A stretch of 47,717 nt of DNA from a virus. Positions 152 through 22,143 of this stretch are shown here, one piece after another. The notes below the pieces were generated by a model. That model ran no database searches and was not told where the DNA came from. It saw nothing but the letters and a program-made list of their open reading frames with translations. The translations under genes were made by a program, and so were the position numbers. Positions within the stretch are counted from its first letter, which is position 1, and each line of letters begins with the position of its first letter. The stretch is taken from the UHGV virus genome UHGV-0097968. The stretch is one strand, 5' to 3'.

Positions 152-227
<76 letters not shown>

Positions 228-281
228 GTTTAAAAGACATCGGCCTCAAGCGGATGTCTGGCTGAAAGGCCTGAAGAATTT

Positions 282-355
282 GGCGCGTTAACAAAGCGGT
301 TATGTAGCGGATTGCAAATCCGTCTAGTCCGGTTCGACTCCGGAACGCGCCTCCA
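282..355 (+). tRNA. cysT: tRNA-Cys (anticodon GCA)
   Basis: 74-nt cloverleaf GGCGCGTTAACAAAGCGG...GCGCCTCCA; anticodon loop TGCAAAT. Confidence 0.95.
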
Positions 356-367
356 CTTTCTTCCCGA

Positions 368-454
368 GCCCGGATGGTGGAATCGGTAGACACAAGGGAT
401 TTAAAATCCCTCGGCGTTCGCGCTGTGCGGGTTCAAGTCCCGCTCCGGGTACCA
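368..454 (+). tRNA. leuZ: tRNA-Leu (anticodon UAA), long variable arm; intact copy, 3' part lies inside attL
   Basis: 87-nt type II tRNA GCCCGGATGGTGGAATCGGTAGACAC...GGGTACCA; anticodon stem AGGGA/TCCCT with loop TTTAAAA. Confidence 0.95.
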
Positions 455-2042: not shown

Positions 2043-2225
2043 TTATTTCTGATTAGGCGTAATCAGTTCTGGTGGGGGGAATGCCGATTTCTCCCGCGTG
2101 ACCTTAATGTTTTCTGGCAGGTGTAGCCCAAGTTCGCAGCGGCTCCGTGCTTCAATAATGCCATTGGTACCATCGGCAAGTACCAGGTGAACCGCGTCAC
2201 CACGCTTTAATGTGAGTTTAAGCAT
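2043..2225 (-). CDS. Hypothetical small phage protein
   Basis: 60-aa ORF whose start overlaps the stop of the upstream gene (translational coupling). Confidence 0.4.
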   Translation of the reverse strand: MLKLTLKRGDAVHLVLADGTNGIIEARSRCELGLHLPENIKVTREKSAFPPPELITPNQK

Positions 2226-2794
2226 TAGCGTATCCTCAGTGACCGTTCGCCGCGTTCCAGATGTGCGCCTGGTACCGGGTTTAATAACTCGGCTGGTGGT
2301 GTTTCTCCACGCGCCAGTATTTCGGCGGCAACCGCCTCCGCAGATTCAATCACTTCTTTAATGGCTCGCTTGTTTGGTGTAATAACCGTTTCTACATCAA
2401 CAAGTGACACGCCTTCATACTCATCCGGGATCTTATCTTTGCTATCGATAATTACCCGGATAGCCCCCTGTGCATCAGTAAATGTGTTTTTTGCGGTTTT
2501 TAGTTTATCCAGGCCAGCAGCTTGCAGGCAGGCGAGCATATGCTTCCGAATTGCTTTTTCCTTGCCTTCAAAGGACGTCTTACGGGTAGCCAGGCGAGAC
2601 ATTTCTTCAGCGCAGGTACTGGCATTGCCCTGTAAATTGCGGCAGATGACCATCATGGCGTCCAGTTTGTCTCCCAGTTCTCCTTCCATACCTTCAAGCG
2701 TGTCGGCGATCATCTCTGGCGTCAGTTCGTCGGAGGTTTCCAGCAGGTCAATCAGGCTGGCATATTCTTTTGCAATAGCGATAGCGGTGCTCAT
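2225..2794 (-). CDS. Siphovirus Gp157-like early protein
   Basis: 189-aa acidic protein, N-terminus MSTAIAIAKEYASLIDLLE; position downstream of the recombination gene as in Gp157-family contexts (recollection, not searched). Confidence 0.5.
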   Translation of the reverse strand: MSTAIAIAKEYASLIDLLETSDELTPEMIADTLEGMEGELGDKLDAMMVICRNLQGNASTCAEEMSRLATRKTSFEGKEKAIRKHMLACLQAAGLDKLKTAKNTFTDAQGAIRVIIDSKDKIPDEYEGVSLVDVETVITPNKRAIKEVIESAEAVAAEILARGETPPAELLNPVPGAHLERGERSLRIR

Positions 2795-5007
2795 GCGGTT
2801 TGCTCCTGTGCAGCGGTGAGGGCGGCGAGGCGTTCAGTTTTGATGTCGGTGATACGGCGCAGGCGCGATCCCAGATACGATGAATATTCTTTATCGCCTT
2901 TGGCTTCTGCTGCTTTTCGGTGTACATCCACTTCGCGGGCGATGAGGCCAAATACCTTGTTTACTTCGTTAGTGGTTACCGCGGAGGCCAGCGTATTGGC
3001 AACGTTGATAAGCTTCTCATCCAGTTCCTTACGCAGACGGGTAGCATCTTCCGCATTCTCGCTGGCATTCTTGATATCAAACTCAGCTTTATTCCTCTGG
3101 CGGTATTCCGGATTGTCGTACAGGCCCATGAAAATATCGGCGCTGAATCCGAGAGGGGATAGCGCTTTCTTAACAGCATCCGTCCAGGATTTCTTCGGCG
3201 CTTCGCCGTCGCTTGTTGGTCCGTATTTAGTGTCGTAGATATAAGGTGTGCATCCGTAAGCCTCGGACTCACCGCGCACTCCATTCAATATGTACCAGAC
3301 TCTAACTTTCATGGTGTGGTGCATTTCACATAGGTACCCGCCAACACCGTCTTGAATCAGATCCCATTCTATTTTTTCACCAACCTGTTTTTTGCGAACT
3401 ATCGGTGCGCCTTTATCAAAACGCTCTTCCACCACCTCTACACCCCAGCCAATACCAAACGGCCCAAATTCGCGAGTCGCTTTCATCGCTATATAAGTGC
3501 CGTTGATGGATGTGCCGCCGCCGTCCTGAGAGAAAGCACTGGTGAAGCGCTCATCGGTTTTGAATACGTTCTTCCACAATGCCAGGTTATCTGTGTCGTC
3601 GGAGTCCTTTAACTCCGTTTCGATAGCTGAGATTGCATTCTGCCGCTTGTGCTCTTCGGTATGGATCCGCTCAACCAGCGCGTCAACGTTCTGCACCAGA
3701 TCCTTTACCTGCTCGCTAAGTTTTTCTTGTGGAGGAGTCTCTTCTGCCGGGGTAATAGCTGCAGGTTCCCTCTGTGAGACGGCGTTATTTTCAGGTACGT
3801 CATACACATGGCGAGGCGTGACAAACCGCTCACGCAACTGCTGCAAACTACGTTCTCCAGCATTTGCTGCTTCGCTTTTTTCGCCCTGATTTGAGGGTGT
3901 TTCTGACATCATCCCATCAATTGAGAATCGTCCGCCGCCGTGGTTGGTGACTTTTACATCATCCTTTGGTGCTGCTTCCTTTGGCTTCTCTTCAACAGCA
4001 TTTGCATCACGCTGCCCGTTAGCTTGCAGCCAGTTGTCGATGTGACTGCGCAGGGATTGTGGGAAGTGGTACATGTCTTTTGCGGGGACGCTCTGAATAA
4101 CACCGAATACTGATGCGCGGTCATAGGCAAGGATCTGATCCGTTGTGCGCAGGGCCATTGACCAGCGTTTAAAATCCTCCCGGTCCTGGCTGATTATTTC
4201 GTCTGCCGCTTTCAGGACGCTGGGGGTGATTTTTTCCGGGCCAACGGGTAACAGGGCGCAGGCAATTTCACGATCCAGTGTGGCGTGAGTCTGTTGGTAA
4301 GGACGTGCGGATGCTGTTTCTGGTTTTACCTCCGGCAGCATTTCATCGCGTTTACCGGGATTCTCTACCCATTTTTTTATAAATTTGGAGATAGTCCAAC
4401 TGGTCGGGTTTTGTTCCTGGGTATCGCAACTTGCCAAAATTGCATGTACCAGATTATTCAATCCAGCAATATGCATGTACTCGATGGGCTTACACGCCAC
4501 CATGGCATCAAGAACGATGCGGTTAAACGCGTCAACCTCATCCTCACTGTCAGTATCACTGTTGTCGAGCATCTCCAGGTATTCACGCGTCTGCGCAAGC
4601 AATTCACTGTCGACTTCGTTGGCATCGTGGCTGAACAGCAGGACGGCGGCGAAGCGTTCACGAGCAGGCAGTTTCATCAGGTCGCTAACCTGTGAGATAT
4701 CTGCTGAACTGCAACCTGAATCAACAGGAGTGTTAACTACCCATCTCTCGCCATCAAAACTGTGTTCTGTGGCAAACGTCTCATCAAACTCACCGACGCC
4801 TGGGCGCGGTTGGCCCGGGGCATCTTCCCAGATTTTAGGTTTGAAATAGTTGTCGCCGTGGTCAGGGTAGGTTTCCCACAATTTGCCGATGATGATGTTC
4901 TCGGCAACTTTTTTGTTAGGGGCGTCGATGGCGATGGCCAGCGCCGGGATCGCGCCGTTTTTGAGCGCGCCTTTTTTTGCTTCTAACAAGCCGTTAAAAA
5001 TGGTCAT
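2791..5007 (-). CDS. Large early-region protein (738 aa) with C-terminal region resembling a phage single-strand annealing recombinase (Rad52/Sak/Erf-like); N-terminal/central part acidic and unassigned
   Basis: Long uninterrupted ORF; C-terminal segment ...TREFGPFGIGWGVEV...GYLCEMHHTMKV...KSWTDAVKKALSPLGFSADIF... resembles SSAP cores by motif recollection; start overlaps downstream gene stop. Confidence 0.7.
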   Translation of the reverse strand: MTIFNGLLEAKKGALKNGAIPALAIAIDAPNKKVAENIIIGKLWETYPDHGDNYFKPKIWEDAPGQPRPGVGEFDETFATEHSFDGERWVVNTPVDSGCSSADISQVSDLMKLPARERFAAVLLFSHDANEVDSELLAQTREYLEMLDNSDTDSEDEVDAFNRIVLDAMVACKPIEYMHIAGLNNLVHAILASCDTQEQNPTSWTISKFIKKWVENPGKRDEMLPEVKPETASARPYQQTHATLDREIACALLPVGPEKITPSVLKAADEIISQDREDFKRWSMALRTTDQILAYDRASVFGVIQSVPAKDMYHFPQSLRSHIDNWLQANGQRDANAVEEKPKEAAPKDDVKVTNHGGGRFSIDGMMSETPSNQGEKSEAANAGERSLQQLRERFVTPRHVYDVPENNAVSQREPAAITPAEETPPQEKLSEQVKDLVQNVDALVERIHTEEHKRQNAISAIETELKDSDDTDNLALWKNVFKTDERFTSAFSQDGGGTSINGTYIAMKATREFGPFGIGWGVEVVEERFDKGAPIVRKKQVGEKIEWDLIQDGVGGYLCEMHHTMKVRVWYILNGVRGESEAYGCTPYIYDTKYGPTSDGEAPKKSWTDAVKKALSPLGFSADIFMGLYDNPEYRQRNKAEFDIKNASENAEDATRLRKELDEKLINVANTLASAVTTNEVNKVFGLIAREVDVHRKAAEAKGDKEYSSYLGSRLRRITDIKTERLAALTAAQEQTA

Positions 5008-5037: not shown

Positions 5038-5358
5038 TTAGTAGGGGATTTCATCGGTATCTGGCGTGTATTCGATGCAAAGTAACTGCTGGATTTTGTC
5101 ATCGATAGCAGCAATACGCTGTTGGGCGTCGGCGGCTGTTTTCTGTTTTTGCTCACGCAGCTGCTCAACCTGTAAACCGATGATGTCGATTGGCTGGGGC
5201 TGGTTGACGGTAATTTCAATTTCGCGGCTTTCCAGAAGGATGTACCTGTCTGGAAAATTTTTTGACATATCAACCGTCGCAATAAACAGCTTTTCATGGC
5301 TGAAAGTTGAAGTTGCATAATTAATAAAGAGTGTTACTGGGATGGTGCGCGCTTCCAT
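5038..5358 (-). CDS. Hypothetical early protein (first ORF of leftward operon)
   Basis: 106-aa ORF preceded by AAGGAG RBS (ccaccAAGGAGtcgctATG on minus strand). Confidence 0.5.
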   Translation of the reverse strand: MEARTIPVTLFINYATSTFSHEKLFIATVDMSKNFPDRYILLESREIEITVNQPQPIDIIGLQVEQLREQKQKTAADAQQRIAAIDDKIQQLLCIEYTPDTDEIPY

Positions 5359-6256
5359 AGCGACTCCTTGGTGGGGTATACTCAGAACCGATCAGCGGTT
5401 CTGTCGTTGGTCTTTCCTCGGTGTAAGGTTGGTCCCTTGCACCATATCCGAATGGTTTGGTCGCCGTTCGGGGTAACTGGCCCGCCTTGTGCGGGTCTTT
5501 TGCCATCTAAAGGGTGCCGGTTACGTTTCCGGCGTCGTTATGTTTCCATTACGACCGTACAGGGCTGGTCAGGCCCGGGCTGGTCTTTCCTGTTTTGAGC
5601 TGGTCAGGCTCATGGTCAACGCTGGTCAGGCGTGGTACTTCCTCCGGTCTTTCCCTGGTGTCATGCTGCGGGTTTGGCCTCTCCTGTTGGGGACTCAGGC
5701 ACAGCGATAAAACCTGGCTGTGTGAAAAAATGGCCCATCGTGCGGACTGGGCAAAGACTAAACACAGCAAATTGATGATGGGCGCCCGGAATCGAACCGG
5801 GTAACGGGCAGGGAGTTCCCGTCAAACACCTGTTCACCACAACCGGGAGCGCACTCCGCCATTTCAAAATTTAACGACAAAGCTCAAAGTTGAGTCGATG
5901 AAGTGCGCTCTCGTGTTGTAGCCAGGACTCTTCCCTGGTGGTCACACCGTATCGCCTTGATGGTGAATCAATCGCTCATACCTGGCTGTGGCTTGCACAT
6001 TCCGGCTACCTGCTATGGAGACAACGCGTTAAGGCTCCGCTTCCATCCAGACCGCTTCGACACATGTGCCATATGCCGGTGAAGTCTTTCCCTCTGTCAT
6101 CGTGTTGGCGCCGACGCGCAAAATTTGGTGCCGTCTTTCCGGCTGTCAGAACGTGTTTCTGAACAACTGCCGCTGGGTAAGCGTTGTTGATGGAATGAAT
6201 ATAACTAAAGGTAATTTTATGCGCAAGGTGTTTTATAACAAAAGTTAGTATTTGGG
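5359..6256 (-). other. Roughly 900-bp apparently non-coding leader of the leftward early operon, containing repeated GCCTGACCAGC and GGAAAGACC motifs and a candidate PL promoter/operator near 6210-6256
   Basis: No convincing ORF on either strand (only short overlapping biased ORFs); three copies of CCTGACCAGC on the transcript-sense strand near 5570-5640; operator-like AACAAAAGTTAGTATTT near 6236-6256 shares sequence with the cI-cro operator region. Confidence 0.45.
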
Positions 6257-6306
6257 GTAAAAATAAAGGCAATGCATTGAAAACATTGCCTTTATTTTAT
6301 TTTTTG
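6257..6306. terminator. Bidirectional rho-independent terminator after the repressor gene
   Basis: 10-bp stem AAAGGCAATG/CATTGCCTTT with 9-nt loop, flanked by A-run on one side and T-run (TTTATTTTATTTTTT) on the other. Confidence 0.6.
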
Positions 6307-6710
6307 GTGGGGGTTAGTTTCTTTCTGGTAACCAGTAACTCTTCAAATAAACGATTAAAGTTTTCAACTTTATCTTCTAATTCAATTAGTTGCTTTTCTT
6401 TTTCTGACTCGGGTAATGAATCAAATAACTCTAACAATCTTTTTTGACGTGAATCCAGCTCTGTTGGTAATTCGTCTACCGGAGTTGGCGCCTGGTCTTC
6501 GTCACCAAAAAGCAGCCATGTGGCAGAACACTTAAGTGCATTGGCCAAAGCCAGCAAGTTCTGACCTTTTGGTTCATTTTGTCCGCTTTCCCATTTAAAA
6601 ACGCTCACACTCGATCTTCCAACCATATCAGCAAGCTGTTGTTGGGTTAGACCAAGCTGTTTGCGTCTTTGAGATAAACGGTCGCTAAGCATCAAATTCT
6701 TCATCCTCAT
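6297..6710 (-). CDS. cI-like repressor, XRE-family HTH only (no peptidase S24 domain)
   Basis: 137-aa ORF with N-terminal HTH (LTQQQLADMVGRSSVSVFKWESGQNEP), divergent from a Cro-like gene; C-terminal part short, acidic and coiled-coil-like. Confidence 0.85.
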   Translation of the reverse strand: MRMKNLMLSDRLSQRRKQLGLTQQQLADMVGRSSVSVFKWESGQNEPKGQNLLALANALKCSATWLLFGDEDQAPTPVDELPTELDSRQKRLLELFDSLPESEKEKQLIELEDKVENFNRLFEELLVTRKKLTPTKK

Positions 6711-11623: not shown

Positions 11624-12775
11624 ATGGCATGGACTGGATTTGGTGGTCAATGGAATAACGGTGTGCATTCTGGCGGTGATGATTCTGGCAGTATAGGCGG
11701 TGGGGGCATAAAACTTGACGGCAAAGGGAATCCTGTAGGTACTCGTGCGCCGACTGCTGAGGAGATCGCATCACAATGGAATAGCTTTGGAGGTAGTCAG
11801 ATTAAACCCAGTGATGTATCGAACATCAGACCGGATGGTGAAGGTACTTATCAGGCTAACATTGCAGGTAATTACCACGTTGTAAGTTCGCAGGGCGCGA
11901 ATACCCCATTTGCTTCGGAACGTAGCAACGTTGCGGCAGGTTTTAGTGGTGGTGTGGGACCAACGCCTGATGGAAGGGGTAACAATAGTGCACCCAGCAA
12001 TCCAAAGGCTGAGGCCGAGGCAAAGAAATGGATTGAAACAGTCAAGGCTGTTCGGGCTGGTAATATCCCCTACGGTTATGTTCTTAACGACGGCAAGGTA
12101 GGCGTAAACGTGCCTCAATATGTTGAACGCCGCAAAGGTCGTGGCGACACATATACCGTTCGGGGTAAAGATTTGTTTGTTGTTTCGCCTGAACTGACAA
12201 AAGCGTATCAGGATGGTCTTGCGGAACGTGCTGAGATTCTGGACGCCGTCAAATTTACGTCTGATTTCTATAAAGACCTTGCAGGTAAATTTGGACAGCA
12301 TAACGCGAACATCGCAAAGGAACTGGCGGAGGCTGCAAAAGGCAAGAAGATTCGTAACAGCAAAGATGCACTGGCGGCGGTGGATAAATTTAATAACCGA
12401 CTGAGTAAAAAGTATGGAGCCAAAGACCTTGAGGCAGTTGCCAGGGCTTTGGAATCGGTTAACCGGGATGCAATGGCGAAGAATTTGTCTAAATTTGGTA
12501 AGGCATTTGGTGTCGCAAGTTATGCTGTCGATGCTTACAATGTTCTTTACATTGAATTTCCGAAAGCTATTCGTACCAAAAACTATCGCCCAATGCTTGT
12601 TAAGTTGGAGGCAATTCTTCTTGGTGCTGATGCTGGTATTGTTGCTGCGTGGGCATTTAGTGCGCTTCTGGCAACGCCGATGGGTATTCTGACGTTTGCG
12701 CTTATAATGGCATTGCTAAGTGCGATGATTAATGAAAAACGCATTGAGGAACTGAATAAGTTCTTAGGGATTTAA
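11624..12775 (+). CDS. Colicin E1-family pore-forming bacteriocin (short, 383 aa; Gly-rich N-terminal domain, C-terminal channel-forming domain)
   Basis: Gly-rich N-terminus MAWTGFGGQWNNGVHSGGDDSGSIGGGG; C-terminal domain with GKKIRN, KFGKAFGVAS, RTKNYRPMLVKLEAILLGADAGIVAAWAFSALLATPMGILTFALIMALLSAMINEKRIEELNKFLGI (hydrophobic hairpin and terminal NKFxGI) matching my recollection of colicin E1/Ia-type pore domains; SOS box in promoter; GAAGGAAG RBS. Confidence 0.85.
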   Translation: MAWTGFGGQWNNGVHSGGDDSGSIGGGGIKLDGKGNPVGTRAPTAEEIASQWNSFGGSQIKPSDVSNIRPDGEGTYQANIAGNYHVVSSQGANTPFASERSNVAAGFSGGVGPTPDGRGNNSAPSNPKAEAEAKKWIETVKAVRAGNIPYGYVLNDGKVGVNVPQYVERRKGRGDTYTVRGKDLFVVSPELTKAYQDGLAERAEILDAVKFTSDFYKDLAGKFGQHNANIAKELAEAAKGKKIRNSKDALAAVDKFNNRLSKKYGAKDLEAVARALESVNRDAMAKNLSKFGKAFGVASYAVDAYNVLYIEFPKAIRTKNYRPMLVKLEAILLGADAGIVAAWAFSALLATPMGILTFALIMALLSAMINEKRIEELNKFLGI

Positions 12776-13479: not shown

Positions 13480-13556
13480 GCAGCCGCAAAATCGGTTGCC
13501 GGGATTTGCACCCCGGATATCTAAAAGGCGACAACGACGCGCCAGCGTCTTTTTTA
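13480..13556 (+). ncRNA. Candidate about 77-nt small regulatory RNA upstream of the antirepressor gene (C4-like/antisense-type)
   Basis: Promoter immediately upstream; hairpin GCAGCCG-CAAAAT-CGGTTGC; hairpin CCGGG-ATTTGCAC-CCCGG; terminator stem GACGC/GCGTC with GCCA loop and T6 at 13536-13556; loop sequence has a complementary and a direct copy in the antirepressor leader. Confidence 0.4.
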
Positions 13557-13715
13557 TTGTCGTGCGCACAGCCACATCCGCGATTTATGGTGGGGCGTGT
13601 AGGGGAGTCGAAAGGCTCGCCGGGTCCTTTTAGCCGGTAGTGCAAACCCTGCATGTCTCACCACCCAAAGATTTGCACCTGAGGGGGGTGATTATCCGAC
13701 TAAAAGGAAATCGCT

Positions 13716-14510
13716 ATGACAACTCAAGTATCCGCAGCAGCCATCTCCCCGATTATCCACAACCAACTTCCCGTCCTCACCACCGAATTACTCGCGAACC
13801 TCTATGGCACAGAGCCGGATTACATTCGTAAAAACCATAACCGGAACTCAGAGCGATTCGTGGTCGGGAAGCATTACTTTTTGCTCGAAGGTGAGGAGTT
13901 GCGCGAATTTAAGCACAGCATGTCTTTAAGACCTCCTGTGAAAATCGCCAGAAATGTCCGCTCTCTCATCCTCTGGACAGAACGCGGCGCAGCTCGCCAT
14001 GCCAAAATGCTGGAAACAGAACAGGCCTGGGAAGTTTTCGAAAAGCTGGAAGATTGTTATTTTAGCCAGCGTCCAGAGAGGCGGAGTACAACTACCGATG
14101 ACCGTACTCCCTTACGTGATGCCGTTAATATGCTGGTCGGTAAGAAAGGCATGATGTATCCCGATGCCTACACCATGATTCATCAACGCTTCGCCGTCTC
14201 TCACATAGAACAACTGTCACAGACGCAAATGTTAGAGGCGATTGAATACATCCACTGCCTGCTACTCGATGAAAATCAGCCAACCATTCCGGATTTTTCT
14301 TTTATCACCACTATCAAAAATGGAAAAGTGACAAGGATGCGCCATGTTGCCAAAGGCGAACATCTGATGACCTTTGACGCTTTCAAAGAGATCGCTGAGC
14401 GGGCAGGGTATCTGGTGATCCACAGCGACAACCTGCGAAGTATGACGCTGGATAAATTGATGCTAATGGGGGAAAAGTCGGCTGTATCCGTTGCTGATTC
14501 AGCATTTTGA
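13716..14510 (+). CDS. Putative antirepressor (ORF6N-like N-terminal domain)
   Basis: 264 aa; N-terminal region ISPIIHNQLPVLTTELLANLYGTEPDYIRKNHNRNSERFVVGKHYFLLEGEELREF resembles ORF6N/Ant-type domain by recollection; RBS AAAAGGAAA. Confidence 0.6.
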   Translation: MTTQVSAAAISPIIHNQLPVLTTELLANLYGTEPDYIRKNHNRNSERFVVGKHYFLLEGEELREFKHSMSLRPPVKIARNVRSLILWTERGAARHAKMLETEQAWEVFEKLEDCYFSQRPERRSTTTDDRTPLRDAVNMLVGKKGMMYPDAYTMIHQRFAVSHIEQLSQTQMLEAIEYIHCLLLDENQPTIPDFSFITTIKNGKVTRMRHVAKGEHLMTFDAFKEIAERAGYLVIHSDNLRSMTLDKLMLMGEKSAVSVADSAF

Positions 14511-21256: not shown

Positions 21257-21853
21257 ATGGCGCAGCATTCATTTATCAGGGTATCCGGCGGTTCGCTAAT
21301 ACCCGCGACACCAGACACGCAACGCTGGTTGACTGAACGAGTCAAACCAGGTGCTGTTGTGTATGCAGATTTCAAACAAGCGCGTAATCCCGCGTTTCAT
21401 CGTAAATTTTTCTCACTTCTCAACCTGGGCTTTGATTACTGGCATCCGTCCGGAGGGGCTATTTCTCCTGCGGAGCGCGAACTGGTTCACGGCTACGTTA
21501 AGTTACTGGCGTATTACGGTGGACACGGTGATGTCATGGCAGAGCTGGCTGATCAGTATCTTCTCGATGAGTCGGAAAAGCGCGCGGGGAATATCAGTGC
21601 GGTGAAGTCGTTCGAGGCGTTTCGCGCCTGGGCGATTATGGAAGCTGGGTTTTATGACGTTCATCAGATGCCGGATGGCAGTTTGATGCGCGTACCTCGT
21701 TCAATCTCGTTTGCTGCGATGGACGATCTTGAGTTCGGTCAACTGTATTCAGCCGTTTTAGATGTGCTGTGGAATTATATTTTGTTCCGCACGTTTGCCT
21801 CTCAGGAGGCCGCTGAAAATGCTGCCGCGCAGCTGCTGGATTACACATCATGA
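21257..21853 (+). CDS. DUF1367-like nin-region protein
   Basis: 198 aa; position and sequence recalled as DUF1367-type prophage protein; GGAG RBS. Confidence 0.55.
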   Translation: MAQHSFIRVSGGSLIPATPDTQRWLTERVKPGAVVYADFKQARNPAFHRKFFSLLNLGFDYWHPSGGAISPAERELVHGYVKLLAYYGGHGDVMAELADQYLLDESEKRAGNISAVKSFEAFRAWAIMEAGFYDVHQMPDGSLMRVPRSISFAAMDDLEFGQLYSAVLDVLWNYILFRTFASQEAAENAAAQLLDYTS

Positions 21854-22143
21854 AAAAAATCGACCTCAGAAAAGCTGCACGCGGTCGCGCTTGTACTGTG
21901 CGTATCCCCGGTGTGTGTAATCACAATCCGGAAACCAGTGTACTGGCTCACTACCGCCTCGCCGGAACATGCGGAACAGCAATCAAACCACACGATATGC
22001 AGGGCGCTATCGCCTGCAGTGCGTGTCACGATGCTATCGACGGACGTACAAAAACGGATTACGAGCACGACTCATTGCTGTTGATGCACGCTGAGGGAGT
22101 TTTCAGAACACTGGCTATCTGGCGCGATGAGGAGTTTATCTGA
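21850..22143 (+). CDS. DUF1364 (YbcO-like) nin-region protein
   Basis: 97 aa; DLRKAARGRACTVRIPGVCNHNPETSVLAH...IACSACHD resembles YbcO by recollection. Confidence 0.6.
   Translation: MKKIDLRKAARGRACTVRIPGVCNHNPETSVLAHYRLAGTCGTAIKPHDMQGAIACSACHDAIDGRTKTDYEHDSLLLMHAEGVFRTLAIWRDEEFI

Follow-up and report, generated by a model that had tools for sequence, protein, structure and literature searches.

A large early-left prophage protein that probably joins a Rad52/Sak-type annealing domain to a non-catalytic RecE-type region

The early-left operon of the lambdoid prophage in UHGV-0097968, a 47,717-nucleotide stretch of viral DNA (the window), contains a gene whose 738-amino-acid (aa) product raises the question of whether so long a protein cuts DNA, anneals it or has some other task. 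The position and length of its open reading frame (ORF) agree exactly with those in an earlier note on this DNA, which had proposed that a core resembling single-strand annealing proteins (SSAPs) sits at the C-terminus of a longer protein. Our analysis indicates that the gene probably encodes a prophage recombinase in which a Rad52/Sak-type SSAP is joined to a non-catalytic RecE-type region, the layout being a RecE-type N-terminal accessory region, a linker, the Rad52-fold SSAP domain and a helical tail, i.e. in window coordinates:

2791..5007, minus strand: the whole large gene, 738 aa, with an ATG start (ORF list)
3112..3597, minus strand: the Rad52-fold single-strand-annealing domain, aa ~471-632 (~160 aa), placed by structure and profile comparison
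2794..3111, minus strand: the C-terminal three-helix tail, aa 633-738
4732..5007, minus strand: D1, aa 1-92, a small, well conserved alpha/beta domain
4333..4680, minus strand: D2, aa 110-225, an acidic helical domain placed by AF2 helices at 115-223 and the charge profile
4000..4305, minus strand: D3, aa 235-336, a helical module with homology to central RecE (ExoVIII) outside its nuclease, placed by profiles and by AF2, in which it spans 240-335
3715..3999, minus strand: the disordered acidic linker, aa 337-431, disordered at 338-430 in the AF2 model, with pLDDT <50 at 338-352 and 364-428
3871-3954, minus strand: the linker island, aa 352-379, VTNHGGGRFSIDGM..E..SNQGEKSE, a predicted small beta-hairpin

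Among 19 orthologues the mean identity is 61% in the tail, 57% in the SSAP domain, 54% in D1 and 52% in the linker island, the least conserved parts being D2 (30%) and the linker overall (27%).

The C-terminal domain belongs, remotely but genuinely, to the Rad52 structural superfamily and lies nearest to its Rad52/Mgm101/Sak branch. The model of this domain has the fold of the Rad52 N-terminal domain, i.e. a helix, a long beta-hairpin sheet and a long basic helix, and the structures closest to it are those of RAD52, Mgm101 and Sak, all bona fide annealases, with sequence identities of just 13-18%. Alignment by hhalign of a 116-sequence family profile with RAD52 31-207, a reference sequence that was checked against PDB chains 1H2I and 1KN0, gave E 7.8e-5 and a probability of 61.6% over 127 columns that span the whole core, and a 31-sequence profile gave E 3.2e-3. 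The alignment places the invariant T609-D610 on RAD52 T148-D149 and K613-K614 on K152-R153, which are residues of the groove for single-stranded DNA (ssDNA); at least 90% of the 116 representatives keep K614, K605 and K606 are invariant, and the 738-aa protein keeps every family-invariant residue. The suspected SSAP-like core is thus upheld by both structure and profile comparison.

Relatives of the domain lead to a named family as well. Rad52_Rad22 (PF04098) is the one Pfam family to recur among them: at lenient thresholds 24 of 31 relatives matched it (best E 8.3e-5), as did 17 out of a diverse set of 116 representatives at E<=1e-3 (best 3.1e-6), and no other Pfam family was matched among relatives at E<=1e-3; precomputed Pfam entries on relatives include PF27430 and PF27432, of which a literature search found no mention. 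With aa 460-738 as the query, 329 proteins were retrieved, many of them stand-alone proteins of 240-280 aa that are annotated as hypothetical and have no Pfam domain (from Pseudomonas, Yersinia, Serratia and others), and an exhaustive search with the C-terminal profile returned 4043 cluster representatives at E<=1e-3, 678 of them at E<=1e-30. Fusions of 660-814 aa with the domain at the C-terminus make up about 25 of the best 150 representatives, the remainder being SSAP-sized. The C-terminal domain is an independent module.

Among phages, stand-alone relatives of 230-280 aa, lacking the RecE-type N-terminus, were found in Pseudomonas H66 (gp21) and F116, Vibrio D53 and Pelagibacter HTVC035P (gp20), and belong to phrog_7838; they match aa ~470-700 with E values from 1e-11 to 1e-49 at 31-42% identity, and share the same conserved motifs. 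Their gene neighbourhoods are typical recombination modules. H66 gp21, for which the depositor noted 'similar to ... Rad52_Rad22 PF04098', lies just upstream of genes for a 3'-5' exonuclease, an SSB and a recombination-associated exonuclease; in HTVC035P a 'putative nuclease' gene overlaps that of a 'putative single strand-annealing protein'; and in Vibrio phage D53 and Pseudomonas phage AH02 the stand-alone SSAP gene is followed by an overlapping Sipho_Gp157 gene. AH02 gp26, upstream of the stand-alone SSAP, was considered as a split-gene homologue of the N-terminal part and rejected (hhalign E 0.45). In H66 the gene next downstream of gp21, the 335-aa 'hypothetical' gp20 (L005 4252-5259), weakly matches (E 8.6e-6) the C-terminal portion of a PHROG family named 'RecE-like recombination exonuclease' and may be an unrecognised nuclease partner in F116/H66-type phages.

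The N-terminal half of the 738-aa protein is homologous to a non-catalytic part of RecE, and no enzyme fold is detectable in it. In the PHROGs, aa 232-333 match the RecE-type families phrog_607 (E 4e-24) and phrog_2082 (E 5e-20), and in NCBIfam aa 232-336 match positions 261-370 of the 877-position PRK09709 ExoVIII model (E 5e-12, far under its cutoff), this being the sole part of the full protein that NCBIfam matched. BLASTP against Rac RecE gave a shared stretch at RecE 263-332, and hhalign extended the similarity to aa 180-363 against RecE 180-372 (E 2.2e-4), a colinear alignment that opens in the C-terminal part of D2. A tblastn search showed similarity of aa 45-331 to RecE-type proteins of the mEp460, Tritos and PPompW prophages, and of aa 142-324 to RecE of Gifsy-1/2. 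The note's description of the N-terminal and central parts as unassigned therefore holds for Pfam, a scan of which with the full protein gave no match (nor did phmmer of the full protein against PDB sequences), but not for these RecE-type profiles, nor for the PHROGs, where the protein matches phrog_2489 over its full length.

The aligned part of RecE does not include the nuclease. In Rac RecE, Pfam places PF06630 at 2-178 and the PD-(D/E)XK nuclease at 615-850, and the nuclease has been assigned to residues 564-866 (PMC11611040). This C-terminal PD-(D/E)XK domain (PF12684/DUF3799) is not present in the 738-aa protein; PF06630 was not detected in it by Pfam either, and is present in the sister fusions P0267 and P0270. 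No PD-(D/E)XK, YqaJ, DnaQ or HNH profile was found with Pfam or NCBIfam, and no nuclease fold is seen in the C-terminal model or in the AF2 model of aa 1-459 (pLDDT 71, from a shallow alignment). The earlier suggestion that recombination might be fused to an exonuclease is thus not supported, aa 1-459 having no PD-(D/E)XK, DnaQ or HNH profile or fold.

Between the two halves, the linker is joined to the SSAP domain by a helix in the AF2 model, and the conserved island within it (also written GGGRFSIDG...SNQGEK, and kept in phage ZF40 gp07) has AF2 strands at 352-355 and 361-364. Its near-invariant residues are G359, S362, N373, G375, K377 and E379, hhalign sets it opposite RecE ~362-372 (IVDIACGRSSA), and it looks like a binding motif for a putative partner. 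The whole protein has a pI of 5.0 and aa 1-230 one of 4.6, with a net charge of about -20 across aa 51-200 and -11 across aa 401-500; the N-terminal and central parts are acidic, as had been claimed, but moderately rather than highly so. An internal start that would yield a short SSAP isoform was considered and rejected, there being no conserved in-frame Met (M366/M367 are Leu/Thr in ZF40).

Of 5426 complete E. coli genomes, 463 (~8.5%) carry the gene at 95-99% DNA identity, 439 of them at full length, and it is thus no chance ORF; it is widespread in Salmonella and Pectobacteriaceae too. Some E. coli copies are broken by an IS3-family element. Full-length orthologues occur in E. coli, Salmonella (~746-757 aa, 47-66% identity in the N-terminal part), E. 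albertii, Pectobacterium, Dickeya, Brenneria and Serratia and in phages ZF40 and BUCT708, with identities across genera of 36-70% and conservation that differs by domain; ZF40 gp07 is 36% identical over the whole length. Megablast of the gene against deposited phage genomes gave no match, and tblastn was needed to reach the phage orthologues.

The prophage lies beside a tRNA-Gly/Cys/Leu cluster, and its minus-strand early-left operon runs leftward of a cI-like repressor gene (6297-6710), the large gene sitting between the immunity region and xis/int with these immediate neighbours:

5038..5358, minus strand: a 106-aa ORF upstream (phrog_2479, E 6e-51, without annotation), 'hypothetical' at the same position in SE11 and BUCT708
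2225..2794, minus strand: the 189-aa Gp157 gene downstream (Sipho_Gp157, Pfam PF05565, E 1e-28)
2043..2225, minus strand: a 60-aa ORF further downstream (phrog_2482, E 5e-35), with syntenic small ORFs in SE11, ZF40 and BUCT708

Beyond the 60-aa ORF come a DUF4224 excisionase and then the integrase. The Gp157 start overlaps the stop of the large gene (ATGA), the overlapping pair recurs in SE11, ZF40 and BUCT708, and the full-length orthologues, those of ZF40 and BUCT708 included, are always followed by Gp157, small ORFs, xis and int; the operon in which the gene and Gp157 are coupled is conserved and has no nuclease. No partner exonuclease was found in the early-left operon, nor among those genes of the early-right and nin regions that were scanned (CII-like, O-like, DnaB, Ant, NinB/Orf, a 97-aa HNH-labelled protein, Q and lysis functions), in accord with the claim of the earlier note that none is evident nearby, and the adjacent downstream gene is Sipho_Gp157, whereas Rac has recE-recT. 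The unusual recombinase architecture that had been proposed, a Rad52/Sak-type domain ending an unusually long protein with no exonuclease nearby, is in this sense sustained.

Gp157 falls in phrog_253, which, like some individual records, is labelled 'Mu Gam-like end protection'. Homology to Mu Gam could not be reproduced with sequence profiles: five Gp157 proteins gave no Phage_Mu_Gam Pfam match, and a Gp157 profile aligned with Mu Gam by hhalign over 16 columns at 1.2% probability. Reliance on host RecBCD marked by abundant Chi sites was likewise unsupported, the prophage having 2 Chi sites in 47.7 kb against ~1 expected, and it is thus not of the Chi-rich type that PMC12315714 links with RecBCD reliance. 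The related prophage of SE11 shares one early-left operon with the window but has a different integrase and attachment site (window 152-454 against SE11 L001 13504-13593; the tRNA-Gly/Cys/Leu cluster against tRNA-Ser), which illustrates module shuffling between related prophages; a frameshifted repressor-like gene lies nearby in SE11.

Several points weigh against a recombinase that anneals DNA. The 738-aa protein itself scores 14.0 bits (E 0.049) against Rad52_Rad22, below the gathering threshold of 20.3 bits, so that annotation pipelines miss the domain; the earlier note's condition for refutation, a lack of any SSAP-family profile match, nevertheless does not apply, and the protein is, as judged by profiles, a remote branch of the superfamily and not a formal member of PF04098. 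The DNA-binding groove is partly conserved, RAD52 R156 aligning with Ser617 and R55 falling in a gap, and neither Foldseek of the model against the PDB nor the 31- and 116-sequence family hidden Markov models against PDB sequences found an SSAP. Annealing by family members is suggested by fold and homology; the N-terminal part might hold a very divergent catalytic site, given the moderate quality of its model; and the 'Mu Gam-like' label of Gp157 is not reproduced by sequence profiles.

Nevertheless, a prophage recombinase remains the probable reading, and the following mechanism may be proposed for it. The annealing core and helical tail are joined to the ~340-aa RecE-type region via the long disordered acidic linker, and the C-terminal domain would oligomerise, bind ssDNA in a basic groove that includes K613/K614 and anneal complementary strands. 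Such annealing would, after induction, promote recombination, genome circularisation or recombination-dependent replication; since the phage encodes no 5'-3' exonuclease, host nucleases or replication would supply the ssDNA. The RecE-type region would be an accessory module, couplable to a nuclease (in true RecE) or to an annealase (here), that presumably holds its effector at DNA ends or on a partner or host factor, and this region, the conserved island and the helical tail might together mediate end tethering or partner and host-factor contacts. The translationally coupled Gp157 would be a conserved partner, possibly for end protection.

A more specific form of this proposal, which we regard as possible yet doubtful, is that the N-terminal region of RecE is an autonomous, portable module and that the fusion, with Gp157, recombines without a phage exonuclease via end tethering or the recruitment of host nuclease or SSB, in which case the recruitment or tethering would run through the D1 domain and the aa 352-379 island. 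Were this true, the family would offer a direct handle on the RecE N-terminus, whose role has stayed obscure since RecE was first described; it might also yield a new recombineering system of compact size, and many of the enterobacterial prophages now taken as 'Rec-minus', a sizeable share, might prove to be recombinase-positive.

Other explanations fare less well. It is unlikely, on present evidence, that the protein is bifunctional, i.e. that it combines annealing with a host-directed job of the acidic N-terminus and linker, such as host-nuclease binding or inhibition, recruitment of host SSB or of the replisome, or the decoying of defence sensors that detect RecE or SSAPs. An acidic, partly disordered N-terminus with a conserved island typical of a binding motif would suit such a job, as would the conservation of D1 at a level like that of the SSAP domain (54% against 57%); RecE carries the same N-terminal region on a different effector, and full-length RecE acts differently in vivo from its nuclease domain alone (PMC11611040). 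However, profile and structure searches revealed no similarity to known inhibitors or enzymes, and this explanation extends the recombinase proposal rather than replacing it.

The main alternative to annealing is that the Rad52-fold domain binds and protects or sequesters DNA ends or ssDNA, forming an end-protection or anti-nuclease module with Gp157 and no recombinase, which we consider rather improbable. The Rad52 fold occurs also in proteins described as end-protecting (DdrA); the partner family is tagged as Gam-like in the PHROGs and some records, there is no encoded exonuclease to feed an annealase, and the equivalents of RAD52 R156 and R55 are not conserved. Against this, the stand-alone relatives sit in classical exonuclease/SSB Rec modules, the nearest structures are those of bona fide annealases, the K152/R153 equivalents are conserved and the Gam-likeness of Gp157 could not be reproduced.

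That the protein is a RecE/exonuclease VIII-like double-stranded DNA exonuclease, as databases label it, appears highly improbable. The labels themselves are numerous: phrog_2489 is called 'exonuclease', as is phrog_7838, which the C-terminal 250 aa match; NCBI orthologue names include 'exodeoxyribonuclease VIII-like protein' and 'exonuclease family protein'; and the E. coli copies are mostly 'hypothetical protein', sometimes 'exonuclease family protein' or 'phage-associated endonuclease'. There is also true RecE homology at aa ~180-363, but it is limited to RecE 180-372, outside the nuclease by either assignment, and the profiles and models contain no nuclease; the 'exonuclease' label rests on this homology to a non-catalytic part of RecE, and appears to have spread from it. 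As for phrog_7838, all the stand-alone Rad52-fold proteins looked at belong to it, so that its 'exonuclease' label is a propagated error, and individual labels of these proteins conflict ('exonuclease', 'DNA binding', 'DNA repair', 'putative SSAP' and the one Rad52_Rad22 note). The label of phrog_7838 and phrog_2489 now stands on many Vibrio and Pseudomonas phage records. Finally, a functionless, decaying remnant in a defective prophage, for which the IS3-family interruptions and the frameshifted SE11 repressor-like gene might speak, is scarcely credible given the intact 738-aa frame in 439 genomes, the full-length orthologues with domain-specific conservation across genera and the occurrence of the gene in the isolated viable phages ZF40 and BUCT708.

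Set beside known systems, the probable recombinase has an extension of ~460 aa at its N-terminus that none of RAD52, Mgm101 and Sak (80alpha, DUF1071) possesses. With Rac RecE and RecE of the Gifsy/mEp460 type it shares a homologous stretch of the non-catalytic region, the early-left operon position and a similar size, whereas at the C-terminus, where RecE has its PD-(D/E)XK nuclease, there is a Rad52-fold annealase, and recT is not adjacent; such an exchange of domains on a common RecE scaffold is unexpected, the fold and role familiar. The P22-type Rec module (Erf and Abc2 with no phage nuclease, a class of PMC12315714) resembles the present one in having a nuclease-less early-left annealase and a small end- or RecBCD-directed protein, and the few Chi sites here are usual for phages with their own Rec module; unlike in P22, the annealase carries a fused RecE-type region, neither protein is related by sequence to Erf or Abc2, and the end-handling role of Gp157 is putative. 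In lambda Red-beta an annealing core is followed by a small helical C-terminal domain, like aa 633-738 here, that binds lambda Exo and SSB (PMC6393309); by analogy, this suggests that the tail may be partner-binding.

The literature search found no paper on a RecE-region/Rad52-annealase fusion, and Lopes et al. 2010 make no mention of the family. A survey of 325 lambdoid phages (PMC12315714, Genome Research 2025), the Table 1 of which has the columns Anti-RecBCD, SSB, Nuclease and SAP, gives ZF40 as the sole phage with the pattern + - - -, i.e. without a strand-annealing protein, and Bobay 2013, as cited there, scored the ZF40 type in the same way. ZF40 gp07, of which the gene is labelled recE/exonuclease VIII in the ZF40 genome paper, is a full-length orthologue of the 738-aa protein, so its annealase domain evidently went unrecognised in that survey. 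The survey also describes 'RecE-2' proteins as distant RecE relatives with no nuclease domain by AlphaFold 3 and roles not known; these may be the family of the 738-aa protein.

The gene is thus widespread and consistently misannotated, and the evidence here points to an annealase without a nuclease domain. If the domain is recognised, many prophages scored as having no recombinase probably have one, and ZF40-type phages would move to a class of 'annealase + end-handling protein, no nuclease', a reclassification that affects conclusions on Chi sites, RecBCD dependence and mosaicism. One N-terminal region found on a nuclease in RecE and on an annealase here argues for an independent functional module, and offers a natural experiment on RecE's large size and on why full-length RecE favours linear-linear recombination. 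Candidate proteins for recombineering might be drawn from this large Rad52-type SSAP family, which is native to Enterobacterales, Pseudomonas and Vibrio.

Elsewhere in the prophage, within 21257-22143, a NinB/Orf-type recombination mediator gene (21257-21853) is followed by the 97-aa ORF with the PHROG label 'HNH endonuclease'; in addition to the early-left module, the prophage thus has recombination-related genes of a second set, in the nin region. The stretch of ~940 bp between the cI-like repressor gene and the first early-left ORF (5359-6296) contains no convincing ORF and has terminator-like hairpins at 5513-5587 (plus strand) and 5747-5733 (minus strand). Of 5426 complete E. coli genomes, 473 have it at 95-99% identity, mostly unannotated; the stretch might encode a long leader RNA or an antitermination RNA, or hold unannotated small genes. 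In the early-right region, between the replication genes and a c4-ant module, lies a 383-aa ORF (11624-12775) with a Gly-rich N-terminus and a hydrophobic C-terminus, for which there was no PHROG match at E<=1e-5. The c4-ant module itself is marked by Rfam matches to isrK (13480-13555, 76 bits) and C4 antisense RNA (13583-13668, 74 bits) immediately upstream of the Ant gene (13716-14510), and is a P1/P7-type secondary immunity module within a lambdoid prophage.

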